From the NCBI RefSeq assembly GCF_030013205.1, contig NZ_CP122648.1: 64,000 bases of DNA, one strand, 5' to 3'. The stretch is from Escherichia coli. Lineage in GTDB: Bacteria > Pseudomonadota > Gammaproteobacteria > Enterobacterales > Enterobacteriaceae. The notes under the pieces are model-generated. The model was not told where the DNA came from, did no database searches, and saw only the letters and a list, made by a program, of their open reading frames with translations. The stretch's first letter is position 1. Each line of letters starts with the position of its first letter. The position numbers and the translations under genes were made by a program. Shown here piece by piece: positions 38,999-59,183 of this stretch.

Positions 38999-39050
38999 AA
39001 ATTCAATCACTTACACATCATTAAGTCAGTGACAAAAATCACACTTGGAA

Positions 39051-40076
39051 TTACTTGGAATATTTTCTTGGAATATTTTCAGGTAACGGGACATCAAGTG
39101 TTGGTGAAACTTTAACCTTTCTGTCATAGATTAGCACTTGCCCTTCGGTTTTGTGACCAGAGAAAAGTTGCTTATCCCGGCTGCTTCCTTCATAGTCTGA
39201 AATTCCTTTCGCCTTCAGATCATGAAAGGTGAAGTCGGTTAAAATACCTGAAATTTTGCCTGCGCGATTTCTTGCTTCTACCCACATTTCGTTAAAGCCT
39301 TTGTACATATATCGGTTGCCGTATTGATTGCTGATCACATAGGCAGATTTTGGTAACTGTTTTGCTTTTTCGATCGCTGCCTGTAATCGTGGACTCCATG
39401 CTTTTATCTGTTTTTTTCCGGTTTTCCCTTGCTGGATGAATATCCCGTCGTTTCCAATCTGTTCCCATTTCAGCGATAACACATCGGAAACCCTCGCTGC
39501 ACACAGATAGGCAATTTCCATTGCGATAAAAACAGGAAGAGGTGCAACGCTTAATACTGCCTGGTATTCTTTGTCGGTTACATATCGTTCGCGGTTTTTG
39601 GCCTTGAATTTACTTACACCTGCACATGGGTTAGCCTTCACGTACCCTCGCTCATACCCCCAACTGTAAACACGGGACATACGGCTTTTTTCATGGTTGG
39701 CTTGCGTTTTACTCTGCTCCCCTCTTTTGTCCATGTATCGACGGATGTGTTCTGGTTTTATGGAATCCGCTGGTACCTTACCGAATACGGCAAGCAACTT
39801 TTTTTGATGTTGCAGATAATCTTTTTGTGTTCTTGGACTAAGGTCACTGTAATAGGCGCTGGCGAGGAATTTTTCCCACAAGCGACCGAATGTCATTGCA
39901 CGATCGCGATTATTTACAGTTTCCTCATACTTTTTCCATAAAGCAGCCAAACCATCCTTGATGGCGGTTAGTGTGACAGATTCTCTGGATGTTGGTTTCC
40001 ATACATAACTATATTTATTTGGGTATACATTTGGAGGTAATTTTTCGTGTTCAGGATTTTTCCTTCGTCTTCCCAT
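39051..40076 (-). CDS. int: lambdoid phage tyrosine integrase
   Basis: 341 aa ORF adjacent to the tRNA-Ser 3' end; integrase-like C-terminal catalytic region. Confidence 0.85.
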   Translation of the reverse strand: MGRRRKNPEHEKLPPNVYPNKYSYVWKPTSRESVTLTAIKDGLAALWKKYEETVNNRDRAMTFGRLWEKFLASAYYSDLSPRTQKDYLQHQKKLLAVFGKVPADSIKPEHIRRYMDKRGEQSKTQANHEKSRMSRVYSWGYERGYVKANPCAGVSKFKAKNRERYVTDKEYQAVLSVAPLPVFIAMEIAYLCAARVSDVLSLKWEQIGNDGIFIQQGKTGKKQIKAWSPRLQAAIEKAKQLPKSAYVISNQYGNRYMYKGFNEMWVEARNRAGKISGILTDFTFHDLKAKGISDYEGSSRDKQLFSGHKTEGQVLIYDRKVKVSPTLDVPLPENIPRKYSK

Positions 40077-40279
40077 CAGATCGCACCAAAATTCGGCTCT
40101 ACCTCGCGTGGTGGTAAAGTTTTATTGCAGGTAAATAGATCCCGGCTGACAATCGGTTTGCCACTACGATTGGTATAGAACGGAAGCCCGTTTTCCATTA
40201 ACCATTTTCGCTGGTGGCTTGCATATTTGCAGCCCGTTAATATTAGCAATTCATCTTCGGTTAAAAATAAGCTGCTCAT
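40076..40279 (-). CDS. xis: excisionase-like protein
   Basis: 67 aa ORF overlapping the int start, in the expected xis position. Confidence 0.6.
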   Translation of the reverse strand: MSSLFLTEDELLILTGCKYASHQRKWLMENGLPFYTNRSGKPIVSRDLFTCNKTLPPREVEPNFGAI

Positions 40280-40337
40280 AGCTATATCTCATAACCGCCG
40301 CTAACTATATACGGTTAGCGGCAATTAGGGTTGAACA

Positions 40338-42779
40338 TTAAAAATCAGCCTGACTCGGGATCAGTTTTTGCCAGATAGCTGAAACGTATTTTGCCTGGTA
40401 ACGAGCGTCATCAAGTGCATTATGGCGCTCACCTTCGAATGGGATAGCAGTTCTGGCATCGAAGTCTATGGCTTTCCCCAGCTCAACGATTGTGCGTACA
40501 TCGCGATCGTTGCAGTAGCGCCACGGGCAGGGGATACCCTGTCGTTCGTATGAACGGCGTAAAATCACGTTGTCGAAGTTGGCCCCATTACCCCAGACCT
40601 GAACAAAAAATTCACCGGAGTTTTCGGCGATAAATTCCCGCAATTGCAGTAGTGCATCATCTAACGGGATTTCATCGGTCATAATGGCAGACTGCGCTTC
40701 ACGTGATTGCTTCAGCCACCATTTAATGACGTCACGATCAATGACTCCGCCAGCAGTATCCAGATCGATGGTCTTGCTAAATTCCGGTCCCATATCTCCG
40801 GTTTGTGGATCGAAAAATATTGCGCCTATTGAGATAATCGGGGCATCGGGATTTTTTCCCATGGTTTCAAGGTCGATCATCAGATGAATCCCCGCTCTGC
40901 TGGTGGATGTGAGCTTATGATGACCATTCACCTTAATTAAGGGATCTGTCGCCTCGCCAGTTTTATTATCGCTGGCGTGATGCTGATTGCCGCTAGGGTT
41001 CTCCTTGTGTGGATGTTCAGCGCCTTCCATTTCCTCCGGATCATTTTCCTGAACTTCAACCTGATTCTCTTCATCGAATGTTTCCTGGTATGTTGCGTCG
41101 CCCATCACCGCGCCACAATCAGGGCAGTTGCCGCCACCGCTCTGACCGCAGGCGGTGCAGACTTTTTCCGGTTCCTGTTGCGCTACTGGTTCGGATTGTT
41201 TCGTTTCTGGCTCGTTTTGTAACGCATTTGGGCTGTTTTGTTCCGCTTTTTGGTCGTTCCGTTCCGATTCATGCTGGTTCTGGTTCACAGAATCGCGAGT
41301 CTGGATCCCCTTGACCCATTTCGGATCATTAGGGTCGCTAATCCCCTCAACAAATTCACCACGCGATACAGCAAGTAACTTATCGGCGTCAGGCTGGCTG
41401 ATATTGGCTGCCTGCATAATTTTGTTTACTTCGTCAGCGGTGACTTTTACTTGGTTAGCGGAACTCACCTGCGACTGAGCATCCAGCGACTGCGCGTTCT
41501 GGCAATGTTCAGTTGTATCCGGTTCCATTGTTTCAGTTGTTGCCTGTTCACCTGCCATTGCGTCAGATGGTTGTGGTTTTTCTTCTTCTGTTTCACGCTC
41601 AGTAACCACCTCGCGGTTAATTTCTTCCAGGATATCTTTTTCCGGCGTATGCCGGGCAGCTGTGAGAGTTTCCTTGCTGGGGTTCTCGTGATCAGTTTCC
41701 GTCAAATAGGCGTTGATATACCCCTGAAGGCGTCCCGGGTAGTGATAAAATTCAGGGTGTGCGCTTCGGATAAGTGCAAAAATAGCGGCGCGGGAATAGT
41801 CCAGAACACCCGGGGTTGCACGAAGTGCTGCGGACCATTCTTTGAACGGACTTTCTTTTTTCAGGACTACTTCTTTTGCGCGACGATAAACGCTGCCGGG
41901 AATTTCATAAATATTAAAATCCATCGGAAGTGTGGCTGCTGCAATCTCCACATCCAGTGTGTCGAGGGTGTGTACTAAATTCGGATTGCGATCGGTTTTG
42001 TTCCCACCGCCAGCATTAGCACCGGAAGCCGTGCGGGTGATGCGTGAAACACGATTTCCTTTCATCCACTCTTTTGTCAGCAGACCCCGATCAGTGTAGT
42101 CAGCGTCCAGGTATGCTTCGAAAAAAGCAGTTATTAGTCCCAGGTATGAATTACCAGGATTAGGGAAAACTTTGTCAGTGTCACGAACCAGTTTGTGGAG
42201 GTCGCGAATCTCCAGCGAGTCGAGCAGACTGGTTTTATGCGAAATAGCCAGGGCAGTAACAGCCGGTAGTTCTTCAGCCCGTGCAATGTGTAATGCCTGG
42301 AGTTCGTCGCGTGAGACGTGCGTTACTGGTTTTTCGCTGCCGTGTTGAGCAAGCCAACGAATGGGCAGTTCCTGACCGGAGACAGGCAGAAGCATGCTCT
42401 CCTCAATCTCAGTCATGTCTTCGCCGTTGATGTTGGTATTGTCAGTGCTGGCTGGTTTGTCCTGAACAGAGGGGGAAGGGCCGATAAATGTCATTGTGAT
42501 GCCATCTTTCCCGCCTTTTTCATAGCGGTTGCAGAATTCAGTGTCAAACACGCCTTCTGGCGGAAGGTCGTCAACAACGGGCAAATTGACGCGGACGGGT
42601 TTTTTAAAGTCGTCTTCATCATAATCGTTGTCATCCATTGCGGTAATGCAGCGGGAGATTGCAACAGATAATTTTTTTGCTGTAGTCCAGTAAAAACCAC
42701 CTTTAATTCCCAGGCGTTTTCTTACTTTGTCATTTTTTGCTTCGCAATATAGTGCAAATTCTTCTTTATCAGTGCTCAT
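40338..42779 (-). CDS. prophage exonuclease with C-terminal DnaQ-like (DEDDh) 3'-5' exonuclease domain and internal CxxC...CxxC ribbon
   Basis: 813 aa; C-terminal motifs HLMIDLETMG...GNGANFDNVIL...HNALDDARY; proteins of this build are often annotated exodeoxyribonuclease VIII-like. Confidence 0.55.
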   Translation of the reverse strand: MSTDKEEFALYCEAKNDKVRKRLGIKGGFYWTTAKKLSVAISRCITAMDDNDYDEDDFKKPVRVNLPVVDDLPPEGVFDTEFCNRYEKGGKDGITMTFIGPSPSVQDKPASTDNTNINGEDMTEIEESMLLPVSGQELPIRWLAQHGSEKPVTHVSRDELQALHIARAEELPAVTALAISHKTSLLDSLEIRDLHKLVRDTDKVFPNPGNSYLGLITAFFEAYLDADYTDRGLLTKEWMKGNRVSRITRTASGANAGGGNKTDRNPNLVHTLDTLDVEIAAATLPMDFNIYEIPGSVYRRAKEVVLKKESPFKEWSAALRATPGVLDYSRAAIFALIRSAHPEFYHYPGRLQGYINAYLTETDHENPSKETLTAARHTPEKDILEEINREVVTERETEEEKPQPSDAMAGEQATTETMEPDTTEHCQNAQSLDAQSQVSSANQVKVTADEVNKIMQAANISQPDADKLLAVSRGEFVEGISDPNDPKWVKGIQTRDSVNQNQHESERNDQKAEQNSPNALQNEPETKQSEPVAQQEPEKVCTACGQSGGGNCPDCGAVMGDATYQETFDEENQVEVQENDPEEMEGAEHPHKENPSGNQHHASDNKTGEATDPLIKVNGHHKLTSTSRAGIHLMIDLETMGKNPDAPIISIGAIFFDPQTGDMGPEFSKTIDLDTAGGVIDRDVIKWWLKQSREAQSAIMTDEIPLDDALLQLREFIAENSGEFFVQVWGNGANFDNVILRRSYERQGIPCPWRYCNDRDVRTIVELGKAIDFDARTAIPFEGERHNALDDARYQAKYVSAIWQKLIPSQADF

Positions 42780-42987
42780 TATTGATAAACCTCATCACAG
42801 ATTTAAGGGTGAACAAATCTCTGCCATTGCTGACATATAAGAATGAAACTGGATATTTATTACGGTGCTGTTTTAAAATCCTGCCGGGATTTCGTTATCC
42901 TGGTGAATAACTTTATCGACCGGATAACAGTTGCCTGGAATTTTCTGTTCGGTTGCTGCGGCCATACATTCCGGTAATGACTCCAAC

Positions 42988-43491
42988 TTACTGATAGTGT
43001 TTTATGTTCAGATAATGCCCGATGACCTTGTCATGCAGCTCCACCGATTTTGAGAACGACAGTGACTTCCGTCCCAGCCTTGCCAGATGTTGTCTCAGAT
43101 TCAGGTTATGCCGCTCAATGCGCTGAGTATAACGCTTGCTGATAACGTGCAGCTTTCCCTTCAGGCGTGATTCATACAGCGGCCAGCCATCCGTCATCCA
43201 TACCACGACCTCAAAGGCCGACAGCAGGCTCAGAAGACGCTCCAGTGTGGCCAGAGTGCGTTCACCGAAGACGTGCGCCACAACCGTCCTCCGCATCCTG
43301 TCATACGCGTAAAACAGCCAGCGCTGACGTGATTTAGCACCGACGTAGCCCCACTGTTCGTCCATTTCAGCGCAGACAATCACATCACTGCCCGGTTGTA
43401 TGCGCGAGGTTACCGACTGCGGCCTGAGTTTTTTAAGTGGCGGAAAATCGTGTTGAGGCCAACGCCAATAATGCGTGCACTGGCGCGACAT
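42988..43491 (-). CDS. insB: IS1 transposase InsB
   Basis: Identical 167 aa product to the first copy. Confidence 0.9.
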
Positions 43492-43685
43492 CCGACGCCA
43501 TTCATGGCCATATCAATGATTTTCTGGTGCGTACCGGGCTGAGAGGCGGCGTAAGTGAACTGTAGTTGCCATGTTTTACGGCAGTGAGAGCAGAGATAGC
43601 GCTGATGTCCGGCGGTGCTTTTGCCGTTACGCACCACCCCGTCAGTAGCTGAACAGGAGGGACAGCTGATAGAAACAGAAGCCAC
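43410..43685 (-). CDS. insA: IS1 InsA
   Basis: Identical 91 aa product to the first copy. Confidence 0.9.
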
Positions 43686-43833
43686 TGGAGCACCTCAAAA
43701 ACACCATCATACACTAAATCAGTAAGTTGGCAGCATCACCTACATTCCTGCATTGTTCTGTGAACACTGACTGCAATATCAACTGACTCTCCGGAAACAA
43801 GAAAAACCGTCAGAATAAGTGCAAATACTGGAT

Positions 43834-44022
43834 TCATTGTGCACATCCTTTTGGCATCAGACGTAAACGGGCCAGCATTGAAACAATGCATACTTTATTT
43901 AATAACTCCCGTTCGTGTTTTCTTTTGTTAATGGCCTCTTCAGTGAATACAGGATTACTGATAGTGACACCAATTTCAAAACAACCTTCAGACGTATTAA
44001 CGTTTGGTAATAACGTTTTCAT
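43834..44022 (-). CDS. dicB: cell-division inhibitor DicB homolog
   Basis: Internal start MKTLLPNVNTSEGCFEIGVTISNPVFTEEAINKRKHERELLNKVCIVSMLARLRLMPKGCAQ (62 aa), closely matching the DicB I recall from Qin. Confidence 0.75.
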   Translation of the reverse strand: MKTLLPNVNTSEGCFEIGVTISNPVFTEEAINKRKHERELLNKVCIVSMLARLRLMPKGCAQ

Positions 44023-44196
44023 TATCGCGCCCTCAACAATGAGTTTTGTGATGCGGTGCCTGGTGCCTCCAGGTGACGTTAACCAGTTAACAATTAACGC
44101 CGGATACAGAGAATCCACCCATAACACTGTTTTGGGTTTTAACTGTTCCGCGTGCGCTTAGCCGCATTCACCGCATCACAAAATTCACTTTAAAAA

Positions 44197-44249
44197 TGGC
44201 GGCAGAGCAGTCACGGAGTAAAACTGATACCGCCAAACGTCACCAGAAA
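44197..44249 (-). ncRNA. dicF: DicF small RNA
   Basis: Reverse complement reads tttctggtgacgtttggcggtatcagttttactccgtgactgctctgccgcc, just upstream of dicB. Confidence 0.7.
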
Positions 44250-44793
44250 ATTGATAACAGAGGGCGTTGCAGCGGGGTTGTCACTTAAGCGTATGGTCAA
44301 CCTGACAACCCGGTGTCCTCAACGGGGAAGGAATAACCTCGCCATACTTACCGCCGCGCCATTTCGCGGAGTGCCACAACCGGAAGCGCACGGTCGACGA
44401 AAATTTAACGACAGGCTATCTATGAACCAGCTACCTCGCCGTGCGCTTTCGCGTTATGGTCTGACTTTTCAGGGAAATATCCTTTCAGTAAACTGTCAGT
44501 GCCGGATGTTCACCCGTGTCCGGCGCACGCACTCCACCTCACCCGTGGAGAACTCCTTAATTACCAACCCTCAGGAGGGTGAATGTTAAAATCAACTCTT
44601 ATTGCTAAATGCCTTTATCAAAATCGCATGGTAAGCAGCATTTCAATAGGCGAGTCTGCAGTTAAAAGTATTTTCGAAGAGTACTTCCCCGGGCATGATT
44701 TTAATAAATGGAATACCAAATTACCGCCAGCAGTTTCAACGCGTATTCTGAAATCAACTGAAAGAGCAAGTACAATTCGCGTTAACTATTTCA

Positions 44794-45201
44794 TTAAAGA
44801 TTTGTGGGATCTTTGATATCCACAGAGCCTAAAGTATGTGCATATGGATGTGCTATTGTGCGCCCTCGCAGATTTGCATCATTTTCTAAATTCACTGAAC
44901 GAAACAGGGCATCAACAAGGCTCTGTACAATGCAAAGGCAATCGAAGACTGTCGCTGTTTCTGTTTTGATTGATGAAAGAACATGGCCATTCACGCAAAC
45001 AGAAATTACCCGTTCATTAACATCGCTTTCCTGCTTTTGATTATCAGAACCATATAGCCCAGAAAAAGCATTGCGCACATTACGAACCATATTATCGATG
45101 GTTTCTTTTTTGGTGTATGCCGGGTCAATTTTCACCAGACTATCACCGAGAGTCGTTGCAGCAATTGTCTGGATTTCTTTTGGTAAATCTTTAAATTCCA
45201 T
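44794..45201 (-). CDS. hypothetical prophage protein (dic operon region)
   Basis: 135 aa ORF co-oriented with the dic operon; no family assignable. Confidence 0.4.
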   Translation of the reverse strand: MEFKDLPKEIQTIAATTLGDSLVKIDPAYTKKETIDNMVRNVRNAFSGLYGSDNQKQESDVNERVISVCVNGHVLSSIKTETATVFDCLCIVQSLVDALFRSVNLENDANLRGRTIAHPYAHTLGSVDIKDPTNL

Positions 45202-45223
45202 TATTAGCCTCGTTGGTTAGCTA

Positions 45224-45442
45224 TTAACGTGGGTATGTAATCATTCTGGCAATGCTTAATGCCGCTGCTTTTTCCAGATTGGTGATATCCTGCTCCAGAG
45301 CGGACAGATTTTCAGCCTGCTTAGCCCTGGCTTCATTGGCCCATTTCAGATCCTGCACTGCATTAATTTTCTGGCGCATCCACTTATAAAGTTCATCATC
45401 GGTATAGTCTGGCGCGATGATGACGGGTTCTCGTTTCTGCAT
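45224..45442 (-). CDS. hypothetical prophage protein (YdfB/YdfC-like position)
   Basis: 72 aa ORF in the dic operon. Confidence 0.4.
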   Translation of the reverse strand: MQKREPVIIAPDYTDDELYKWMRQKINAVQDLKWANEARAKQAENLSALEQDITNLEKAAALSIARMITYPR

Positions 45443-45601
45443 ACTGATTCCTCGCGGTGCTGTTTCGCTTATCAGCCGTTAGATTTTGCCGAACTGGAAA
45501 GCGCCTGTTTAAACTCACTGAAGCTGAGAGCTTCTTCGCCTTCGGCAAGTCCTTCGAAGTATTCTTCGTAAGCCTTTTCCATGATTGTGTCGAAATCCAT
45601 A

Positions 45602-45838
45602 TTACTCACCTGAGTTTCTTTCCAGCCAGCGACGCGCGCCAGATTCGGTTTTAAACGTTTTGCTTTTGGTATACGTCATCGCGGTGAACGTGCCGTCCTG
45701 GTTGGGAAACACGCCGTATACCAGAGATTCGTTGTTGCCAAGATCGATAGTATCCATGCTGACCTCATTTCCCCTTAACGCCGGGGTAGCGGAACAAAAA
45801 CCTGCTGCATAGTTATTAAAGTTGAACCCTGCCGTCAT
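45602..45838 (-). CDS. hypothetical prophage protein
   Basis: 78 aa ORF; a further ~47-codon ORF (MDFDTIMEKAYEEYFEGLAEGEE..., ~45460-45600, minus) lies just downstream. Confidence 0.4.
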   Translation of the reverse strand: MTAGFNFNNYAAGFCSATPALRGNEVSMDTIDLGNNESLVYGVFPNQDGTFTAMTYTKSKTFKTESGARRWLERNSGE

Positions 45839-46021
45839 GTTCTTACGCCTCGGGCTGGCTACTTAACCCCTGACCACTGCCTGGTAACTCGAAGTATTGC
45901 CCTGCATTCTGTGGGGCGGGGTGGGTTGGTATGAAAAGAAGGATACCCATAGGTATTTAAAAGTAAATACCCATGGGTAACTTTTTGCGGTGTCTTAACT
46001 GGTGACTAGTTGTTTGGTGAG

Positions 46022-46441
46022 CTATGATGCGTTTTGTGCTTTCTTTTTACGGATTTCTTCGTAGATCATATTGTAATACTGTTTTTTCTCTTCAAGAGTT
46101 TTTAATAAGTTATCCGCTTCACTTTCTGGCAGTTCGTCTAAGAGATCTAAAAAAATACGTTGTCGTGGCGTTAGAACCCTTGTTTCATAACTGGAGGCTG
46201 TGTTCGTTGATGATGAAACGATACCATCCATCCATCCCCGGGGTAACCCAAAGGACTCTTCGATAATCTCCACCATATCATCAGCGATCCGTTTTTTTCC
46301 CTTTTTCCCCTCTGGGTACAACATTCTTGATACATAAGAAGGCTCGCGCCCGATCTTTCTGGCCACGTTAACCGCTTTACCATCGCATTTCTCATCACGA
46401 ATTTTGATGAGTTGCTGTCGTCTAAATTCATATTTGTCCAT
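46022..46441 (-). CDS. prophage repressor (HTH; DicA/CI-like role)
   Basis: 139 aa with HTH AVNVARKIGREPSYVSRML; transcribed divergently from the cro-like gene. Confidence 0.6.
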   Translation of the reverse strand: MDKYEFRRQQLIKIRDEKCDGKAVNVARKIGREPSYVSRMLYPEGKKGKKRIADDMVEIIEESFGLPRGWMDGIVSSSTNTASSYETRVLTPRQRIFLDLLDELPESEADNLLKTLEEKKQYYNMIYEEIRKKKAQNAS

Positions 46442-46541
46442 AGGTAAATAATAGATGCGATTACCGCAAGGTAAACAACCTGTGGGTATTGACTTTTGTT
46501 TACCTGTGGGTATTCTTTACTGTGTTTACTAAGGAGTAGCT

Positions 46542-46823
46542 ATGGAAGAATTAAGAATATTTCTCAATTCTCTTTCGTCAGATGAACAGCGTATGTTTGC
46601 ATGCGAGTGTGGTACCAGCATCGGTTATCTAAGAAAGGCATTGAGTAAAGGTCAAGTGTTAGGGGCATCGTTATGCGTCCTTATTGAGCGAGCCAGTAAT
46701 GGTGAAGTTACACGTCAGCAACTAAGGCCTTTTGATTGGATGAATATTTGGCCCGAGCTGGAAGATACCAAAACGTTAACACAACCACTTTCTAGGAGCT
46801 TGATTCATGAAAATCAAGCATGA
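46542..46823 (+). CDS. Cro/DicC-like small regulator
   Basis: 93 aa ORF facing the repressor across a ~100 bp operator-like spacer. Confidence 0.5.
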   Translation: MEELRIFLNSLSSDEQRMFACECGTSIGYLRKALSKGQVLGASLCVLIERASNGEVTRQQLRPFDWMNIWPELEDTKTLTQPLSRSLIHENQA

Positions 46824-47232: not shown

Positions 47233-47297
47233 CTGACAATAGCCATATCGAATCGCTTCCGGCAACTCGTGAGTAAAAAGATTCGGTATCAGAAGAG

Positions 47298-50116: not shown

Positions 50117-50206
50117 GTGCTGGTTCTCAAATGTGCGCTGGCTATTGCTGCTGTAATGGCAATTTATTGCCTTGCTGTTGTTCTTATGGATCGCCTTTCT
50201 GATTGA
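50117..50206 (+). CDS. candidate small hydrophobic peptide (29 aa), type I toxin-like
   Basis: AGGAGG 5 nt upstream of GTG; MLVLKCALAIAAVMAIYCLAVVLMDRLSD; below the ORF-track length cutoff, read by hand. Confidence 0.3.
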   Translation: MLVLKCALAIAAVMAIYCLAVVLMDRLSD

Positions 50207-50254
50207 TTTTATATTGGCGAGGTGACGTGAGTTAAGTAGAATTGCTGCGGGTGC

Positions 50255-50683: not shown

Positions 50684-50684
50684 C

Positions 50685-51740
50685 GTGCGGGTATTACTTC
50701 GACCTGTTCCGGTACCGGAACTTGGGCTGGTGGTGCTAAAGCCGGGCCGTGAATCCATGCAGGTATTTCATAACCCTCGAGTGCTGGTGGAGCCGGAACC
50801 GAAAAGCATGCGCGGTCTGCCATCCGGGATTGTTCCTGCCGTTCGCCAGCCACTGATGGAAGATAAATCATTACTGCCATTTTTCAGCGACGAACGGGTG
50901 ATTCGTGCTGCTGGCGGCGCAGGCGCATTGTCTGACTGGCTCCTGCGTCATATTAAATCCTGCCAGTGGCCTCATGGTGACTACCATCACAGTGAAACCG
51001 TCATACATCGTTACGGTACTGGCGCGATGGTATTGTGCTGGCACTGTGACAACCAGCTGCGCGACCAGACATCAGAGTCACTCGGGCAACTTGCTCAACA
51101 AAACCTGTCAGCATGGATGATTGACGTCATCCGTCACGCAATGAATGGCACACAGGAGCGGGAATTATCGCTGGCTGAATTATCCTGGTGGGCGGTCCGC
51201 AATCAGGTGGCGGACGCGCTACCGGAAGCGGTATTACGTCGTTCGCTGGGGTTGCGTGCGGAAAAAATCCGCCCAATGTACCGTGAAAGCGACATCGTGC
51301 CGGGAGAGCAGACCGCCACCAGCATACTGAAGCAGCGCACAAAAAATCTTGCGCCGCTGCCTCACGCCCACCAGCAAAACCCGCCACAGGAAAAGACGGT
51401 GGTCAGCATTGCCGTTGATCCGGAGTCACCGGCTCAGTATCTCCAGCGCCAGAAACCACAACGGGAAGAGATGCCTGTATACACGCGTTGGGTAAAAACG
51501 CAGAAATGCATGACGTGCGGTAATCAGGCAGATGATCCGCATCACATCATTGGTCATGGACTGGGAGGGATGGGAACAAAGGCTGATGATTTGTTTGTTA
51601 TTCCGCTGTGCCGTAAATGTCATAACGAACTGCACGCCGGGGTAAAAGATTTTGAAGAAAAACACGGCAGCCAGCTGTTGTTGCTGATTCGTTTTTTAAT
51701 GCACGCGAGAAATTCGGGTGTCCTGAAGTGGAAAGCATGA
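50685..51740 (+). CDS. nin-region protein with C-terminal HNH-like zinc motif (DUF968-like)
   Basis: 351 aa; C-terminal CMTCGNQADDPHHIIGHGLGG...PLCRKCHNELH. Confidence 0.55.
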   Translation: MRVLLRPVPVPELGLVVLKPGRESMQVFHNPRVLVEPEPKSMRGLPSGIVPAVRQPLMEDKSLLPFFSDERVIRAAGGAGALSDWLLRHIKSCQWPHGDYHHSETVIHRYGTGAMVLCWHCDNQLRDQTSESLGQLAQQNLSAWMIDVIRHAMNGTQERELSLAELSWWAVRNQVADALPEAVLRRSLGLRAEKIRPMYRESDIVPGEQTATSILKQRTKNLAPLPHAHQQNPPQEKTVVSIAVDPESPAQYLQRQKPQREEMPVYTRWVKTQKCMTCGNQADDPHHIIGHGLGGMGTKADDLFVIPLCRKCHNELHAGVKDFEEKHGSQLLLLIRFLMHARNSGVLKWKA

Positions 51741-52106
51741 ATGACTGAACGCATAGAATTTGTTTTGCCTTACCCGCCGACGGTGAATACCTACTGGCGA
51801 CGTCATGGCAATACGTATTTCATCTCGGAAGCCGGAAAGCGTTATCGCCGTGATGTGGCGCTAATTGTTCGCCAGCAGCGGCTGAAATTAAGCCTGTCCG
51901 GAAGGCTGGCGATAAAGATTATTGCAGAGCCACCGGATAAGCGCCGCCGCGACCTGGACAATATCCTGAAGGCACCACTGGATGCGCTGACGCATGCCGG
52001 ACTACTTATAGACGACGAGCAGTTTGATGAAATCAATATTGTGCGCGGTCAGCTCGTTCCTGGTGGGCGGCTGGGGATAAAAATCACAGAACTGGAGTGC
52101 GCATGA
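51741..52106 (+). CDS. rusA: Holliday junction resolvase RusA
   Basis: 121 aa with RusA motifs ...PDKRRRDLDNILKAPLDAL...; directly upstream of Q. Confidence 0.85.
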   Translation: MTERIEFVLPYPPTVNTYWRRHGNTYFISEAGKRYRRDVALIVRQQRLKLSLSGRLAIKIIAEPPDKRRRDLDNILKAPLDALTHAGLLIDDEQFDEINIVRGQLVPGGRLGIKITELECA

Positions 52107-52771
52107 ATAACCAGTATTTACAGTTTGTGCGTGAGCAGCTCATTATCGCCACCGCTGATTTGAGTGGGGCAACAAAAGGTCAGCTTGAAGCCTGGCAAGA
52201 GAATGCCATGTTCGATACAGGGCGTTACAGGCGAAAAAAAATCCGGTACCGCGATGAAGTGACTGGAAAAATGATAACGCGGGATAATCCACCAATCCCG
52301 GGAAAGCAATCGCTGGCGAAGGGGACGTCAATTCCTCTGGTCAGTCCGGTTGAGTTTTCGACATCATCGTGGCGGCGGGCTGTTCTGTCTCTTGAAGAAC
52401 ATCATAAAGCCTGGTTGTTGTGGTGTTACAGCGGGAGTATTTGTTGGGAATATCAGATCGCGATAACACAGTGGGCGTGGAATGAATTTAATACTCAATC
52501 CGGTACCAGAAAAATTGCAGGGAAAACGCAGGAACGCCTGAAAAAATTAATCTGGCTGGCGGCGCAGGCAGTAAAAGCAGAACTTTTTGGTGGGGAAGGT
52601 TATGAATACCAGGAGCTGGCATTACTGGCGGGAGTGACAACTAAAAACTGGTCCAAAACATTTACTGGTCACTGGGTTGCAATGAAACACACTTTTCATC
52701 GGCTGGATAGTGAGGCTTTATTGTTCGTGACGAGAACACGTTCAAAACAAAAGGCGGCGTTTTCACTGTAA
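52097..52771 (+). CDS. late-gene antiterminator Q-like protein
   Basis: 224 aa ORF after rusA and before a strong terminator, the standard Q position. Confidence 0.55.
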   Translation: MRMNNQYLQFVREQLIIATADLSGATKGQLEAWQENAMFDTGRYRRKKIRYRDEVTGKMITRDNPPIPGKQSLAKGTSIPLVSPVEFSTSSWRRAVLSLEEHHKAWLLWCYSGSICWEYQIAITQWAWNEFNTQSGTRKIAGKTQERLKKLIWLAAQAVKAELFGGEGYEYQELALLAGVTTKNWSKTFTGHWVAMKHTFHRLDSEALLFVTRTRSKQKAAFSL

Positions 52772-52854
52772 AGTATTGCAAAAGTAGATTAAAAGGCATA
52801 TATTTCGTGCATATTTGATATTTTGCTGATTTTGTACGCGATGGCAAAGAATAT

Positions 52855-52882
52855 AAAACCCGCCTCCGAGCGGGTTTTTTTA
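52855..52882 (+). terminator. tR'-like rho-independent terminator of the late leader
   Basis: aaaacccgcctccgagcgggttttttt. Confidence 0.6.
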
Positions 52883-53296
52883 TGCCCGAAAAGCGGTACA
52901 TTAAACACGCTGGTGGTTGCGAATACTGGTCTTTCAGCTTGCTGGCTTTTTCGACAAGAGTTATTGGTATGTCACGTTAACCAGAACAGGGAAAAGGCAT
53001 GCTAAAACAGTAGGACATGGCCGAAACCGCCAGAGTGGTATTTAATGAATTAAGCATCACCGAACCGGCGACAGTCGGGGTATTGCGCAGAATACTTACC
53101 TTTCACGCGAACGCTGCCAGTTAATACGGACCCGGCTTGTGATGGTGGGTATGGCAGGTTATCCTTTTTATTTGTGGTAAATGGGCGGCTTGTGGGTGTT
53201 AGCGGCACCAGCCAGTCATTTGCTTATGTGTTGATGAGAATTTACCTCTTTGGGATATAATTGAGCTAACCTTTTGCTAATTAGAGTAAAATTATA

Positions 53297-54010
53297 ATGG
53301 CTGTTGTCTGTTCAGTTATCATGGTTTGCTCCCCAATTAATATTTTTCTTGAAAAGGATACGTTGTCACTTAAGCCCGGCTCAGTTGTTTTGGCCACCAA
53401 ATGCATCAGGGAGCTTTTCCTTATGCATTATGGCAAAGTTAAAATTGTCGATATAAACCATTCTATAGTAAGTCAATATCTGGAAAGTCAGCATAAGCTG
53501 ACAAGAACTCCTCTGACTGACATTCCGCTTTACTTGTCGCAGGAACCCAACAATCCTGCGTTGGCTGTGGCTTTAATTACCAGCCAGAGACTTTCCGGAG
53601 AGACCACGGACATGTTTCTTATGATGGCCTGCCTGTCGTTGTTTGAATCAGATGAACGGATGTTATTATTTTTAAGTGGATGTTTATCCAGTATAAGTGC
53701 CAAAGTCAGAGCGATAATTCAAACAGATATATCAGCAAGCTGGACGCTTGGTGCGATTGCTCTACAGTTGCATATGAGTGAGAGCTTGTTAAAGAAAAAA
53801 CTCAAGGATGAAGGTCTCAGGTTCAGTAATTTGTTACTTGAGGAACGGATGCGGGTTGCTGTAAATATGTTATGCTCCCGGCATGGATATGGACAGGCTG
53901 TAGCAGAAAAATGCGGTTATTCAAGTAGATCCTACTTTATCTCTGTATTTCACCGCTATTATGGCTTCCCGCCAGACAGATATGTATCTATGCAAGGGCT
54001 TGATTTTTGA
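53297..54010 (+). CDS. AraC-family transcriptional regulator (prophage moron)
   Basis: 237 aa, AT-rich, C-terminal AraC HTH (...GYSSRSYFISVFHRYYGFPPDRY); sits between Q and the lysis genes. Confidence 0.7.
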   Translation: MAVVCSVIMVCSPINIFLEKDTLSLKPGSVVLATKCIRELFLMHYGKVKIVDINHSIVSQYLESQHKLTRTPLTDIPLYLSQEPNNPALAVALITSQRLSGETTDMFLMMACLSLFESDERMLLFLSGCLSSISAKVRAIIQTDISASWTLGAIALQLHMSESLLKKKLKDEGLRFSNLLLEERMRVAVNMLCSRHGYGQAVAEKCGYSSRSYFISVFHRYYGFPPDRYVSMQGLDF

Positions 54011-54036
54011 TTTAATCTGATTATTATTTTCGGCCC

Positions 54037-54112
54037 GGCCCTTTAGCTCAGTGGTGAGAGCGAGCGACTCATAATCGCCAGGTCGCTGGTTCGAATCCAG
54101 CAAGGGCCACCA
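54037..54112 (+). tRNA. tRNA with CAU anticodon (ileX/ileZ-like Ile2 or Met)
   Basis: ggccctttagctcagtggtgagagcgagcgactCATaatcgccaggtcgctggttcgaatccagcaagggccacca. Confidence 0.7.
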
Positions 54113-54113
54113 A

Positions 54114-54190
54114 CCGCCACCAGTTCACCAAGAAAGAGTGTTAACCCTTTAAGTTGAGTGTGCGAGGTTCGAGTCCTCGGTGGCGGTCCA
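54114..54190 (+). tRNA. atypical tRNA-like gene (possible UUU anticodon; D-arm lacks GG)
   Basis: Acceptor ccgccac/gtggcgg, T-arm cgagg-ttcgagt-cctcg, 3' CCA; anticodon loop cctttaa has C at position 33. Confidence 0.4.
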
Positions 54191-54192
54191 GT

Positions 54193-54268
<76 letters not shown>

Positions 54269-54271
54269 TAT

Positions 54272-54346
<75 letters not shown>

Positions 54347-54608
54347 GCAGTAGACGATACCAGGTTGTTTTGGGCACTGACATATTATATGTGGGATGTT
54401 TTCCTGAATCTTTATCCACATCCTGTTCTGTAATACGTGATATCGGTTACAGTCCAGTGCTGTCTTTTTACAACAGCGTAATGGTGCATTATCGGTGGAG
54501 ATGTTGTATTTCCTGACAGGGCCGGTGATGCATCATTCCGATGTTGTTAACATCTATAAAAAACGTTGAGATTAATCACGTATTAAGCAAAACCTGGAAA
54601 TTCATCTT

Positions 54609-54635
54609 AACCGCCGTACCAGGCGGTTTTTTTTA
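54609..54635 (+). terminator. rho-independent terminator in the tRNA-to-lysis spacer
   Basis: ccgccgtaccaggcgg followed by TTTTTTTT; a second hairpin gggccgctggtggccc plus T-run lies at ~54762-54786. Confidence 0.55.
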
Positions 54636-54804
54636 TTCAGTTTCTTCATGGCTCGCTACTGCGGGCCTTTTTCATTTCTTCGCCCTGCTCAGCGTATGTC
54701 AAATCTGAATACACCACACAAAAGGTATCTGCGGGTGCCTTTGACGGGGTGTTGTTTTTTACGGGCCGCTGGTGGCCCTTTTTTATTTACAGGAGAAAAA
54801 AAGT

Positions 54805-55197
54805 ATGTCTGAACCCTTATCCGGTTCCGGCACGGCGGCTGCGCTCGGAGGGGCGACGGTATTCGGGCTGTTCACCGGAACGGATTTCGGGATTGTGTTT
54901 GGTGCGTTCGCGGGGGCGTTGTTTGTGGCAACGATGCCGCAGGCGCTTTCTGTCTGGCGGGTGGCGGCGCATTTTCTGGTGTCGTTTATTATCGGCGTAC
55001 TGGGGGCGGATGTGATGGCGTCTTATCTGGTCGAAAAACTGGGGCTTCACAGTAAATCTGTCGACGCGCTGTGTGCAGTGCTGGTGTCTGTGGTGTCGGT
55101 GAAGATTCTGTCGTTCATCCACCAGCAGGATATCGCATCGCTGGTGTCAGGACTGTTCTCCCGCCTGCGAGGCGGAGGAGGCGGTAATGTTAAGTAA
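54805..55197 (+). CDS. putative holin / lysis membrane protein
   Basis: ORF 54772-55197; start ATG 54805 after AGGAG; Gly/Ala-rich TM segments; first gene of the lysis cluster. Confidence 0.5.
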   Translation: MSEPLSGSGTAAALGGATVFGLFTGTDFGIVFGAFAGALFVATMPQALSVWRVAAHFLVSFIIGVLGADVMASYLVEKLGLHSKSVDALCAVLVSVVSVKILSFIHQQDIASLVSGLFSRLRGGGGGNVK

Positions 55198-55462
55198 CCT
55201 TCCCGGATTACTGAATGTGGCGTTATGCACGGTTATCGTGCTGACGCTCTTTTTTTATCGTCGTCGCGATTCCAGGCATAAACCGCTGATGTCATGGCTG
55301 GCCTGGCTGCTGATGCTGCTGTATGCCTTTGCGCCCCTCAGCTATCTGTGTGGTCGCCCGTTAGCAACGGGCTGGCTGGATGTGTTTTTTAATCTGCTGT
55401 TCTGCGTGCTGGTGATACGCGCACGCGGGAGCGTCACAAGAATCTTTCCATTGTTGAGGTGA
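55187..55462 (+). CDS. small lysis-cassette membrane protein
   Basis: 91 aa hydrophobic ORF overlapping both neighbours. Confidence 0.4.
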   Translation: MLSNLPGLLNVALCTVIVLTLFFYRRRDSRHKPLMSWLAWLLMLLYAFAPLSYLCGRPLATGWLDVFFNLLFCVLVIRARGSVTRIFPLLR

Positions 55463-55842
55463 ATATGTCGGGTAAATTCAGATTCAGCCGCCGGAGCGAG
55501 AAAAATCTGGAAGGCGTCAAACCACAGCTGGTTGCTGTAGTTCGCCGCGCCCTTGAACTGTCGGAGGTTGATTTCGGTATTACGGAGGGCCTGCGCACGA
55601 AAGAACGCCAGAAACAGCTGGTTGCAGAAGGTAAGAGCCAGACCATGAACAGCCGCCACCTGACCGGTGATGCGGTGGATGTTGTGGCCTGGGTTGGCAG
55701 CCAGGTGTCATGGGACTGGCCTCTGTACGAGAAAATCGCGCAGGCATTTAAGCAGGCTGCCGCAGAGCTGGGAACTGCCATCGAATGGGGCGGGGACTGC
55801 AAAACGCTGAAAGACGGACCTCACTTTCAGTTGAAGCGCTGA
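55459..55842 (+). CDS. endolysin, peptidase M15 (VanY-like) family
   Basis: 127 aa with SRHLTGDAVDV...DGPHFQL metallopeptidase motifs. Confidence 0.75.
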   Translation: MNMSGKFRFSRRSEKNLEGVKPQLVAVVRRALELSEVDFGITEGLRTKERQKQLVAEGKSQTMNSRHLTGDAVDVVAWVGSQVSWDWPLYEKIAQAFKQAAAELGTAIEWGGDCKTLKDGPHFQLKR

Positions 55843-55856
55843 TAATCAGGTGTGTT

Positions 55857-56039
55857 ATGAGCAGAAAACACTGGACACACAGAATGCCGCGAACGGCGGC
55901 GAAATGGGCACTGGTAGCGATACTGGTGCCTTTTTTATTGGCGGGATGCGTCAGCCTGGATAGGGCGCGTCAGCTTTTGGATGCTGCCTCTCAGGTCTGT
56001 GAAATTGTCAATGGTGTCCGGCAGTGTATGCAGAACTGA
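55857..56039 (+). CDS. lipoprotein spanin-like (Rz1/o-spanin-like)
   Basis: Start at MSRKHWTHRM...; signal peptide with lipobox LLAGC; follows the endolysin. Confidence 0.5.
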   Translation: MSRKHWTHRMPRTAAKWALVAILVPFLLAGCVSLDRARQLLDAASQVCEIVNGVRQCMQN

Positions 56040-56080
56040 ACGACGGTGAGAGCAGAATATTTTTAGTGGAGCGAAGTTCT

Positions 56081-56431
56081 ATGCCATCACGAATCCCACG
56101 CGCCTGCCGTAAGCGTGGATGTGCAGGTACAACCACAGACAGTTCTGGTTACTGCGATAAACATCGTGGCGAAGGATGGGTACAGCATCAACGCGGACTG
56201 AGCCGCCACCAGCGTGGCTATGGCTCGAAATGGGATACCATACGTGCGCGCATACTGAAGCGTGATAATCATCTGTGTCAGAACTGCCTGCGCAATGGGA
56301 GAGCCGTTGAAGCCAGAACTGTGGACCACATCATTCCGAAAGCTCATGGTGGCACGGATGCAGACAGTAACCTGCAGAGTCTGTGCTGGTCCTGTCATAA
56401 AGCAAAAACAGCGCGCGAACGCATCAATTGA
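56081..56431 (+). CDS. HNH endonuclease (terminase-associated)
   Basis: CxxC...DHIIPKAHGG...N...CWSCHKAK motifs; immediately upstream of the terminase small subunit. Confidence 0.75.
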   Translation: MPSRIPRACRKRGCAGTTTDSSGYCDKHRGEGWVQHQRGLSRHQRGYGSKWDTIRARILKRDNHLCQNCLRNGRAVEARTVDHIIPKAHGGTDADSNLQSLCWSCHKAKTARERIN

Positions 56432-56578
56432 TAATAGTTCCCATCTGTAGGGGAGGGGCGGGTCAAATCTCTGCAACCCTGGCTGCTCAGTACCGCCGCC
56501 TGACCTTTCCTCGCATCGCCGCAGGTTCGAAAACTTTTTTTTGGAATGTGATTAAATGATTGATAGGTAAAACCGATT

Positions 56579-57061
56579 ATGTCAGGCCCCCCGAAAACCC
56601 CGCCACGCCTGCATTTGATACGAGGCAACCCCTCAAAACGTCCCGTTAAAGACCCCAAAAAAACCGCTAAAAAGGACGAAAAAGGTCTTCCTAAAATTCC
56701 GCAACATTTAGGGGCGCAGGGGAAGTACTGGTTCAGGCGAATGGCGGAAGAGTTGAATGCGGAAGGGATCATTTCTCAGCTCGATGCACGTGCGCTCGAG
56801 TTACTGGTGGAAGCCTACACCGAATACCGGCATCACTGCGAAATACTCGATGTTGAGGGTTATACCTACCGCACGGAAACGCAGAATGGCGATGTGCTGA
56901 TCAAGGCACACCCGGCTGCTGCGATGAAGGCTGATGCCTGGAAGCGAATCCGGGCGATGCTTGCAGAGTTTGGTATGTCACCGGCAAGCCGGGCGAAAGT
57001 AAATACCGCCGGACCGGATGATGTTGATCCGCTGGCAGAGCTTTTAAAAGCGAGAGACTGA
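56579..57061 (+). CDS. terminase small subunit (P27-like)
   Basis: 160 aa; stop overlaps the large-subunit start. Confidence 0.7.
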   Translation: MSGPPKTPPRLHLIRGNPSKRPVKDPKKTAKKDEKGLPKIPQHLGAQGKYWFRRMAEELNAEGIISQLDARALELLVEAYTEYRHHCEILDVEGYTYRTETQNGDVLIKAHPAAAMKADAWKRIRAMLAEFGMSPASRAKVNTAGPDDVDPLAELLKARD

Positions 57062-58797
57062 TGGCAAAAGTGGCTGACGGGATCCGCTACGCCGAACGTG
57101 TTGTTGCAGGAGAAATTGTTGCTGGCGAATTTGTCCGTCTGGCCTGCCAGCGTTTTCTTGATGATCTGAAGTACGGCGAAGAGCGGGGGATTTATTTCAG
57201 TGAACCCCGTGCACAGCACATCCTGAATTTCTACAAATTTGTACCCCATGTGAAAGGGGCGCTGGCAGGTCAGCCCATTGAGTTGATGGACTGGCATGTG
57301 TTTATCCTCATTAATATTTTTGGTTTTGTCATTCCGCTGGTGAATGAAGAAACCGGGGAAGTTGTCATGCGCAGCGATGGCAGTGGATGCCCGGTGATGG
57401 TGCGCCGGTTCCGGACAGCATACAACGAAGTTGCCCGTAAAAACGCAAAATCAACCCTGTCATCGGGTATCGGTCTGTATATGACGGGGGCAGATGGTGA
57501 AGGCGGGGCTGAGGTGTATTCAGCCGCAACCACGCGTGACCAGGCCAGAATCGTGTTTGAAGACGCCAAAAATATGGTCAGAAAAGCCCGGTCGACACTC
57601 GGGCGATTGTTTGATTTCAACAAGCTGGCGATCTACCAGGAGCAGAGCGCATCAAAATTTGAACCCCTTTCCTCGGATGCAAACAACCTGGACGGTCTGA
57701 ACATCCACTGCGCCATTATTGATGAGCTGCATGCACATAAAACCCGCGACGTGTGGGACGTTCTGGAAACGGCAACCGGTGCCCGTCTGCAGTCCCTGTT
57801 ATTTGGTATCACCACGGCGGGCTTTAACAAGGAAGGGATTTGTTACGAGCAACGCGATTACGCCATCAAGGTATTGCGAGGCTATAACAGCGACGTGGAG
57901 GGCGCGGTAAAAGACGACTCCTACTTTGCAATTATTTACACGCTCGATGAGGGAGATGATCCGTTTGATGAAACGGTCTGGCAGAAAGCGAATCCCGGCC
58001 TGGGCATCTGTAAACGCTGGGATGATCTGCGTCGTCTGGCGAAAAAGGCGAAGGAGCAGGTCTCGGCGCGGGTGAATTTTTTCACGAAACACATGAATGT
58101 GTGGGTCACTGCCGAATCTGCCTGGATGGACATGATTAAGTGGGAGAAGTGCGAATACATTGCTCCACAGCATGAGCTGAAAACATATCCCATGTGGGTC
58201 GGCGTCGACCTTGCTCATAAGATTGATATCTGTGCGGCGGCAAAACTCTGGCGAACCGATAACGGGCATGTTCATGCCGATTTTAAATTCTGGCTTCCGG
58301 AAGGACGGCTGGAACGATGCTCGCGGCAGCAGGCAGAACTTTACCGGAAGTGGGCAGAGATGGGGAAGCTCATCCTGACGGATGGTGATGTTATCGATCA
58401 TGCTCAGATAAAAAGTGACTTACTGGAATGGATTGGCGGTGAAAACCTCAGGGAACTGGGATTTGACCCGTGGAGCGCAATGCAGTTCAGTCTGGCGCTG
58501 GCTGAAGAAGGGATACCGCTGGTGGAAGTTCCGCAGACGGTCCGCAATCTGTCAGAGGCTATGAAGGAAACGGAATCACTGGTTTATGCCGGACGTTTCC
58601 ACCACAGCAATCATCCGGTCATGAACTGGATGATGTCTAACGTTACGGTAAAACCGGACAAAAACGACAATATCTTCCCGAATAAATCCACGCCGGAAGC
58701 CAAAATCGACGGCCCTGTTGCGATGTTTACAGCAATGAGCCGGATGCTGGTCAATGGCGGTGAACTGAAGTTGCGTAGAGAAGTGGTCAATAATTGA
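57061..58797 (+). CDS. terminase large subunit
   Basis: 578 aa, ATPase plus nuclease layout; last phage gene before the host junction. Confidence 0.8.
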   Translation: MAKVADGIRYAERVVAGEIVAGEFVRLACQRFLDDLKYGEERGIYFSEPRAQHILNFYKFVPHVKGALAGQPIELMDWHVFILINIFGFVIPLVNEETGEVVMRSDGSGCPVMVRRFRTAYNEVARKNAKSTLSSGIGLYMTGADGEGGAEVYSAATTRDQARIVFEDAKNMVRKARSTLGRLFDFNKLAIYQEQSASKFEPLSSDANNLDGLNIHCAIIDELHAHKTRDVWDVLETATGARLQSLLFGITTAGFNKEGICYEQRDYAIKVLRGYNSDVEGAVKDDSYFAIIYTLDEGDDPFDETVWQKANPGLGICKRWDDLRRLAKKAKEQVSARVNFFTKHMNVWVTAESAWMDMIKWEKCEYIAPQHELKTYPMWVGVDLAHKIDICAAAKLWRTDNGHVHADFKFWLPEGRLERCSRQQAELYRKWAEMGKLILTDGDVIDHAQIKSDLLEWIGGENLRELGFDPWSAMQFSLALAEEGIPLVEVPQTVRNLSEAMKETESLVYAGRFHHSNHPVMNWMMSNVTVKPDKNDNIFPNKSTPEAKIDGPVAMFTAMSRMLVNGGELKLRREVVNN

Positions 58798-59183
58798 GCA
58801 AAAAAAGGAACGCGGCCGTCAGATTAAAGCCGCGGGACAAAGTCCATAATTTCCAAGAGTTGTTGAATTTCCCAGCTTTTTTGAAAGCCTTTGTATCATA
58901 CTAACAAGTAAAAAAGGTTTAAATACCAAAATTAACCTATATTTCTGGTTAGCTTTACCATGACAGATGACTTGCTCCTGGAGACATTGGCGCAGCCAGT
59001 CTGTATTGGTGAGTTGTGTATTTATTGTTCGCCGTTTTCTCAGTTTTTTTCTACAGACATAATAAAAAAGACACGTCTCAAGCATGAGCGTGTCTGAGTT
59101 TGTTTTATTTATTTGTCTTGGTAAATTATTGTCGTTACTACCAGGCACTGTTCTGTTAAATAATTGAAGTCAGCGCAAAAAAA

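Follow-up and report, generated by a model that had tools for sequence, protein, structure and literature searches.

A defective lambdoid prophage in serU

The window, a stretch of 64,000 nucleotides of Escherichia coli DNA, carries an ordinary defective lambdoid prophage, of a kind already known, that is inserted in the tRNA gene serU and ends beside the host gene zinT (Table 1). The preliminary description had it running from int-xis to the large terminase gene and then meeting zinT, and annotation as well as Pfam and PHROGs scans agreed. Positions 38000-60500 are 100% identical to porcine ETEC chromosomes (e.g., ETEC4079), whose RefSeq annotation lists int, DUF4224, exonuclease, dicB, immunity, replication, RusA, and Q genes, followed by three tRNAs, two holins, an M15 endolysin, HNH, terS (P27 family), terL, and then zinT; Pfam and PHROGs scans of the ORFs in the window were in agreement with this annotation. 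The gene order is lambdoid and lies beside the integration site with the integrase at one end, and the morphogenesis genes are gone when compared with intact relatives (JNEC-KY180 proteins, tblastn). No paper on this serU remnant was found in a literature search.

Table 1. Features of the serU prophage and its flanks (positions in the window).
Feature	Position	Strand	Evidence
serU, tRNA-Ser(CGA), at attL	38909-38998	+	ARAGORN, Rfam
Tyrosine integrase, 341-aa ORF	39051-40076	-	Pfam Phage_integrase, annotation
DUF4224 protein, small gene beside int in xis position	40076-40279	-	Pfam DUF4224, E=1.9e-15
Exonuclease, 813 aa, Exonuc_VIII N-terminal region and Rv2179c-like 3'-5' exonuclease domain	40338-42779	-	Pfam, annotation
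IS1, 768 bp, within DUF1482 gene	42973-43740	-	blastn, annotation
dicB	43834-44022	-	annotation
DicF sRNA	44197-44248	-	Rfam RF00039, 73.4 bits
Immunity and replication region	46022-48837	.	PHROGs, annotation
Repressor-like gene	46022-46441	-	PHROGs, annotation
cro-like gene	46542-46823		PHROGs, annotation
cII/YdaT-like gene	46807-47232		PHROGs, annotation
Replication initiator	47298-48374		PHROGs, annotation
DUF977/Ren-like gene	48415-48837		PHROGs, annotation
DUF968/HNH-like gene, RusA resolvase, antiterminator Q	50685-52771	+	PHROGs; Pfam Phage_antiter_Q, E=1.8e-91
AraC-type HTH regulator	53297-54010	+	Pfam HTH_AraC
Three phage tRNAs: CAT (Met/Ile2), Thr-TGT, Gly-TCC	54037-54346	+	ARAGORN, Rfam
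Lysis cassette: two holins and M15 peptidase endolysin	54805-55842	+	Pfam Phage_holin_8, Phage_holin_3_7, Peptidase_M15_4
HNH endonuclease	56081-56431	+	Pfam HNH
Small terminase terS, P27 family	56579-57061	+	Pfam Terminase_4
Large terminase ORF (terL), 578 aa	57061-58797	+	Pfam TerL_ATPase and TerL_nuclease, tblastn, alignments
Deletion joint, 4-bp microhomology GAAC	58762-58765	.	three-way alignment of window, UMNK88, and KK05-19
Remnant of yodB-less serU-zinT spacer (positions 242-669 of 669)	58766-59183	.	colinearity
zinT, intact host gene	59184-59834	-	annotation; 99.5% identical to K-12

The integrase is flagged as frameshifted by PGAP in the identical RefSeq records; its ORF equals in length the annotated integrase of vB_EcoS-689R5, matching it at 340 of 342 aligned positions (stop included), with two residues differing. 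The IS1 copy is bordered by an 8-bp target duplication, as determined by blastn against the uninterrupted UMNK88 gene, and is 100% identical (blastn) to a second IS1 at 31635-32402. A search for defence systems with PADLOC gave no match for the low-GC gene at 48984-49793 or for the genes at 40338-42779, 44794-45201, 46022-46441, 50685-51740, and 53297-54010.

At the left end, the 62-bp att core comprises positions 38937-38998 and is repeated in UMNK88, JNEC-KY180, and CFSAN018748. Integration within a tRNA gene is expected to leave a phage-type compensatory G/C pair in serU at attL, and such a pair was seen: serU is chimeric, with a host 5' part and a phage 3' part, and G 38956 and C 38967, a compensatory pair in the variable arm, are phage-derived, the host type at these positions being A/T (K-12, E. 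coli C, and KK05-19). Consistent with this, in UMNK88 the G48/C59 pair at attL was of the phage type, whereas attR, like the empty sites, had the A/T pair of the host type. Phage-derived DNA begins inside serU, between 38938 and 38956, and not at 38999, where the prophage had been taken to start. Insertion of Stx phages at serU has been published (PMC8065619). The tRNA-Ser 3' end was previously noted to lack a repeat at the right junction, and both searches of the window confirmed this: a 28-nt pattern with up to 3 mismatches occurred once (0 expected by chance), leaving no second copy of the serU 3' end, and a blastn search (word size 7) with the attL region as query and positions 39100-60000 as target returned only noise, with no attR.

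The joint within terL

None of 20 structural proteins of JNEC-KY180, from portal to tail-fibre assembly, had a tblastn match (E<=1e-3) in the 64-kb window, whereas terS and terL matched, so the reported absence of structural genes holds, as does the short distance to zinT (386 bp between the stop codons of terL, at 58797, and zinT, at 59184). TerL residues 1-568 are phage-derived, with 99.6% identity to the 585-aa TerL of JNEC-KY180, whereas residues 569-578 (LKLRREVVNN; codons 58765-58794) and the stop codon are host spacer; the gene has lost its last 17 codons and reads on into host DNA. The joint could be mapped to the base: the match to phage terL extends up to 58765 and that to the host spacer starts from 58762, with no extra bases, such that terL codon 568/569 is joined to host DNA 241 bp beyond serU. 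Around the shared GAAC, the two sequences resemble each other imperfectly (phage, TGGTGGTGAAC; host, TGGTGGTGGGAAC). Alignments revealed no IS or filler DNA at the joint, the nearest IS1 being that at 42973-43740, and the joint thus does not have the structure of an IS-mediated adjacent deletion. With JNEC-KY180 as a proxy, the joint-to-attR distance plus 241 bp gives a lost length of approximately 20.0 kb, both the size and the content being estimated from relatives that are 96-98.5% identical.

At the same site, UMNK88 and JNEC-KY180 carry portal through tail-fibre genes and a 62-bp attR, although an independent internal deletion has taken most tail genes of the UMNK88 prophage while attR was kept. 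The clean terL-host joint, together with intact relatives that carry both parts, supports the earlier proposal insofar as the distal half of the prophage was probably lost, along with attR, through one deletion. Alternatively, earlier internal deletions or IS events could have removed the structural genes stepwise, the observed joint being only the last of them, as might be suggested by the UMNK88 prophage and by the IS1 insertion, the pseudogene flag of int, and an IS1-bounded inversion in ETEC6333. This course is possible but unlikely, as there is a single novel joint between terL and host DNA, no structural-gene fragments are left, and no intermediate deletion forms were present among 5426 complete E. 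coli genomes.

The host spacer and the absence of yodB

The preliminary description had attributed the absence of yodB to the same deletion. yodB is indeed lacking in the window, and a synteny check against K-12 confirmed the order zinT-yodB-serU there; in UMNK88, yodB likewise lies between attR and zinT. However, its removal together with the distal half and attR is very unlikely. Positions 58755-59400, which include the retained spacer (58766-59183), are colinear with a yodB-less allele (99.5% identity in KK05-19, 98.5% in E. coli C, and 96.6% in Nissle 1917). The first 207 bp of this stretch (58755-58961) sit between serU and yodB in K-12, and beyond them the window enters 222 bp specific to the yodB-less allele. 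Seen from serU, yodB comes only after the retained 207-bp segment, towards zinT, and a deletion that stopped short of this segment could not have reached the gene. The 222-bp segment, whose alignment with the 995-bp yodB segment is confined to the zinT terminator hairpin (read from the sequence near 59066-59100), is not a scar specific to one clone: the yodB-less spacer occurred in 2304 of the 5426 genomes (~42%) and yodB in 3114 (~57%), and E. coli C and KK05-19 combine the yodB-less allele with an empty attB. Moreover, in a swine strain whose zinT flank is identical to that of the window, the prophage is complete, attR is present, and all 669 bp of the yodB-less spacer are intact. Loss of yodB by this deletion is thus not supported; the strain probably already carried the yodB-less allele before the prophage integrated, and the host loss amounts to only 241 bp of intergenic spacer. 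A 109-aa ORF in the spacer (58819-59148, minus strand) had no Pfam or PHROGs match and was treated as non-coding.

yodB is a presence/absence dimorphism in E. coli; where it is missing next to the scar of a prophage, comparison with K-12 alone is no reason to infer collateral damage.

Distribution, history, and related prophages

The identical joint was found in exactly 17 of the 5426 complete genomes, all from pigs, and all terS-terL copies at >=99% identity were within these 17. An intact parent prophage at >=99% identity was found neither in the 5426 genomes nor in 50,697 phage records. In 15 of the 17 joint-bearing genomes, ETEC4079 included, the deleted host segment of 241 bp is not found at another chromosomal position; ETEC6333 and ETEC6334 have a second place for it. 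ETEC6333 also contains an inversion bounded by IS1. The remnant is probably inherited vertically in a porcine ETEC/edema-disease (O139:H1) clone. The joint can serve as a base-exact marker of that one clone, with little importance beyond annotation.

We consider the following history to be correct with a probability of roughly 0.9. The prophage, lambdoid and equipped with a P27-type terminase and an HK97-type head module, would have inserted itself within the 3' half of serU when the host already had the yodB-less form of the serU-zinT region. At a later time, terL codon 568/569 was probably joined to the spacer by one illegitimate recombination at the 4-bp GAAC, with a loss of ~20 kb. Besides attR and 241 bp of host intergenic spacer, the lost stretch presumably contained the genes for portal, protease, capsid, and connector and every tail gene. 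A single event appears probable, as does a microhomology-mediated mechanism, although 4 bp is short and could be coincidental. The remnant (~38938-58765) would then have been inherited vertically and decayed further, as suggested by the IS1 insertion and the pseudogene flag of int. Because attR and the structural genes are absent, it is predicted to be unable to excise or to form particles.

A rearrangement that left the distal half elsewhere (inversion or translocation between prophages), or a misassembled joint, is highly improbable: prophage- and IS-mediated inversions do occur in the clone, but the identical joint recurs in 17 independent complete assemblies, and the 241-bp segment, which would be expected to travel with attR, has no second location in 15 of them. 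That the element is a PICI-like satellite naturally devoid of structural genes, as its int and xis-like pair, regulators, replication and terminase genes, and want of capsid and tail genes might suggest, can practically be dismissed, since such islands have both att sites, are excisable, and natively lack structural and lysis genes, whereas this element matches full-length prophages gene by gene as far as the break inside terL (96-98% nucleotide identity), has a terL that lacks 17 codons and runs into host DNA, lacks the attR needed for excision, and carries a full lambdoid lysis cassette and Q. It is also purely speculative, and most improbable, that the remnant was kept for its usefulness to the pig-adapted clone (repressor immunity, DicB/DicF, three tRNAs, AraC-type regulator) or that its HNH-TerS-TerL set works, in situ or in trans, together with an HK97-like helper in the same cell to package the DNA beside zinT; the loss of the last 17 residues of TerL argues against packaging activity.

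Close relatives of the remnant are the serU prophages of UMNK88, JNEC-KY180 (an Stx1d prophage), and vB_EcoS-689R5, which share its attB, 62-bp core, int, and int-to-terL gene order at 96-98.5% nucleotide identity. These relatives keep the portal through tail genes, whereas the copy in the window ends at terL codon 568; attR is kept in UMNK88 and JNEC-KY180, while the vB_EcoS-689R5 record is incomplete, breaking off inside gene J, and shows the core only in its attL copy. The cargo differs as well, the prophage in the window having no stx. In O157 Sakai, many lambdoid prophages of one genome are defective through deletions or IS insertions, and several of them still excise via attL and attR (Asadulghani et al. 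2009, PMC2669165). Our remnant resembles them in its deletion and IS damage but differs in having no attR. It is also similar to the cryptic prophages DLP12, Rac, and Qin/Kim of K-12, which have kept lambdoid early, Q, and lysis genes, lost morphogenesis genes by deletion, acquired IS insertions, and been inherited vertically. It has the dicB/DicF, ydfB/C, RusA, and DUF968 (YdfU) genes in common with Qin and Rac. From these K-12 elements the remnant is distinguished by its position at serU, its break inside terL, its HK97/P27-type packaging module, and its restriction to 17 porcine genomes.

Loss of the distal prophage and attR

Alignment of the prophage remnant at serU (blastn and pairwise) with UMNK88 terL (window 58300-58765) and with the KK05-19 locus, an empty attB where serU ends at 2575 and zinT starts at 3245 (window 58755-59400 versus locus 2817-3461; 99.5%), revealed one novel joint. 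The phage strand reads ...CAATGGTGGTGAAC followed by CGGAGCC, the host strand ...GTTGGTGGTGGGAAC followed by TGAAGTTGCG, and the window ...CAATGGCGGTGAAC TGAAGTTGCG; this base-level comparison therefore placed the crossover within GAAC, a 4-bp microhomology in an imperfectly similar patch, and revealed neither IS sequence nor filler DNA at the joint. The phage lost everything beyond terL codon 568 and the host lost 241 bp directly 3′ of serU, amounting to ~20.0 kb (joint to attR end plus 241 bp, with JNEC-KY180 as ruler), and the "terL" reading frame now runs into host DNA, which supplies its last ten codons (LKLRREVVNN) and its stop. The host sequence at the joint (KK05-19 locus ~2805-2816) is GTTGGTGG, which differs from the Chi octamer GCTGGTGG at a single position, and the phage side (window 58740-58765 region) carries GCTGGTC and TGGTGGTG; this near-Chi sequence may be a coincidence.

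The preliminary description of a prophage devoid of structural genes that ends near zinT was confirmed. The stop codons of terL (58797) and zinT (59184) are separated by 386 bp, and none of 20 translated JNEC-KY180 structural genes matched the entire 64-kb window (tblastn, E ≤ 1e-3), with JNEC-KY180 terS giving a match and its terL matching over residues 1-568 of 585 (99.6%). In serU-integrated relatives, the full morphogenesis module follows terL: in the UMNK88 prophage it comprises portal, protease, capsid, connectors, and part of the tail genes, the Stx1d prophage JNEC-KY180 has the complete set from portal to tail-fibre assembly, and the vB_EcoS-689R5 record is similar. The 62-bp att core (tRNA positions 29-90) has a second copy at attR in UMNK88, JNEC-KY180, and CFSAN018748. 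No second copy of the 28-nt serU 3′ end was found in the window with three mismatches allowed (0 expected by chance), bearing out the reported lack of a tRNA-Ser repeat at the right junction.

At attL, tRNA positions 48 and 59 (window 38956 and 38967) are occupied by G and C, in contrast to A and T in empty-site strains and at the UMNK88 attR. G and C are a phage-supplied compensatory pair in the variable-arm stem, which places the integration crossover within tRNA positions 29-47. This chimeric serU is the only 3′-end copy found in the window because attR was deleted, and the 3′ half that serU originally had in the host was not found there. The motif CTTGGAAT(A/T), repeated three times in tandem, overlaps the int 3′ end beside attL, with similar motifs on the phage side of UMNK88 attR; these are candidate arm-type integrase binding sites.

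Of 5426 complete E. coli genomes, exactly 17 matched a 161-bp joint probe over its full length; all are porcine, with O139:H1 strains among them, and every copy of the remnant's terS-terL at ≥99% identity falls in these 17. A composite probe, joining 862 bp of terL to the 241-bp spacer that was lost, found two places in genomes with intact relatives and a single chromosomal place, that of the terL part, in 15 of the 17, ETEC4079 included; the distal segment was therefore lost rather than moved. The recurrence of the joint and the missing second place for the spacer in those 15 led us to reject an artefact, or a rearrangement leaving the distal half elsewhere.

The yodB-less host background

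One deletion had been proposed to remove the distal half, attR, and yodB; the first two losses stand, and the third does not. MG1655 has the expected order zinT-yodB-serU. The retained host DNA (58766-59183) runs unbroken into a 222-bp segment adjoining zinT, colinear with empty-site strains. K-12 lacks this segment and has 995 bp in its place, yodB among them. E. coli C and KK05-19 show the yodB-less arrangement with an empty attB (serU, 669-bp spacer, zinT), and Nissle 1917 shows it beside an island integrase. The yodB-less segment occurs in 2304 and yodB in 3114 of the 5426 genomes, and the two counts cover almost all of the species. In the swine strain CFSAN018748, the zinT flank matches the window at 100% identity and serU is occupied by a full CDT-I lambdoid prophage; attR and all 669 bp of the yodB-less spacer are present as well. 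In K-12, yodB lies on the zinT side of a 207-bp block that the window keeps; the deletion ends left of this block and therefore could not have removed yodB. Given these observations, the absence of yodB predates the deletion and reflects a dimorphism that was already present in the host background.

The 995-bp yodB allele (K-12 NC_000913 2042026-2043020, K-12 locus 6027-7021) and the 222-bp allele are unrelated apart from a common zinT terminator hairpin, and their boundary lies exactly at the zinT stop codon. A 55-bp stretch of host spacer with the hairpin CGCGGC...GCCGCG is 89% identical to UMNK88 locus 25274-25326, inside the prophage between the phage tRNAs and a TerB gene.

Gene content of the remnant and its surroundings

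Window 38000-60500 is 100% identical to porcine ETEC chromosomes (e.g., ETEC4079, NZ_CP122643), and the annotated content agrees with Pfam and PHROGs scans of window ORFs.

Features of the serU region, left to right; RefSeq entries were read from the annotation of identical ETEC4079-type DNA
Feature	Position	Strand	Source
tRNA-Asn and second degraded island	15482-25750		
tRNA-Asn	15482-15557		
IS1, left copy	31635-32402		
serU, tRNA-Ser(CGA)	38909-38998	+	ARAGORN
Tandem repeats	39040-39085		
Tyrosine integrase, flagged frameshifted	leftmost in prophage order		RefSeq annotation
DUF4224 protein, exonuclease	after integrase		RefSeq annotation
DUF1482 gene, interrupted by IS1	after exonuclease		RefSeq annotation
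IS1, prophage copy	42973-43740		
dicB, ydfC, ydfB	after DUF1482 gene		RefSeq annotation
DicF sRNA	44197-44248		Rfam
Repressor-like, cro-like, YdaT genes	after ydfB		RefSeq annotation
Replication gene, DUF977 gene	after YdaT		RefSeq annotation
269-aa gene	48984-49793	-	
DUF968, RusA, Q	after DUF977 gene		RefSeq annotation
HTH regulator, three tRNAs	after Q		RefSeq annotation
The HTH regulator of the preceding row (AraC family)	53297-54010	+	
Two holins, M15 endolysin	after tRNAs		RefSeq annotation
HNH, P27-family terS, terL	end of phage genes		RefSeq annotation
207-bp block	58755-58961		
Crossover (GAAC)	58762-58765		
55-bp spacer stretch	58793-58847		
Dimorphic interval	58962-59183		
zinT, msrQ, msrP, hiuH, hprR	host genes beyond terL		RefSeq annotation

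The int ORF (341 aa) equals the annotated vB_EcoS-689R5 int in length, yet PGAP flags it as frameshifted. The 269-aa gene lies in a low-GC patch (~36% GC) that separates the replication region from the Nin-like region; it is phrog_21495, is kept in relatives, had no match in Pfam and PADLOC searches, and looks like a moron. The AraC-family regulator gene comes directly after Q and before the three phage tRNAs, a position typical of prophage cargo.

The prophage IS1 has an 8-bp target duplication and is 100% identical to the left copy, in direct orientation; the two flank a yeeJ fragment, asnT, mtfA, serU, int, and the exonuclease gene. To the left of the prophage IS1, the sequence is inverted in both ETEC6333, where it is host DNA, and ETEC6334; this splits the remnant and shows that IS1-driven rearrangement continues. 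The sister remnant in ETEC6333 carries 1.5 kb of additional DNA between its endolysin and HNH genes (locus 22288-23700), with genes for an Ais-like LPS core heptose(II)-phosphate phosphatase and a DUF1441 protein; neither the window nor UMNK88 has this segment. The second island follows tRNA-Asn and comprises a frameshifted integrase, an integrase fragment, an RHS-repeat core protein, and a TPR protein (annotation of identical ETEC4079 DNA).

Origin of the joint and comparison with known systems

The joint is single, has a 4-bp microhomology, and lacks an IS; the ~20 kb would have been deleted by illegitimate recombination independent of RecA, through slippage or end-joining at the microhomology. 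Earlier internal losses may have preceded the final joint, as the UMNK88 prophage has an independent tail-gene deletion. By analogy with lambda gpA, in which the TerL C terminus bears a prohead-docking tail, the loss of 17 C-terminal TerL residues probably also removed this tail. Because attR and the structural genes are missing, the remnant should be locked in place and incapable of virion formation. IS-mediated adjacent deletion was dismissed, with no IS at the joint, and assignment to PICI-like satellites was rejected. The remnant is an ordinary defective prophage at a published insertion site of lambdoid and Stx phages (PMC8065619) and belongs to the same class as the K-12 elements DLP12, Rac, and Qin and the defective prophages carried by O157 Sakai (PMC2669165).
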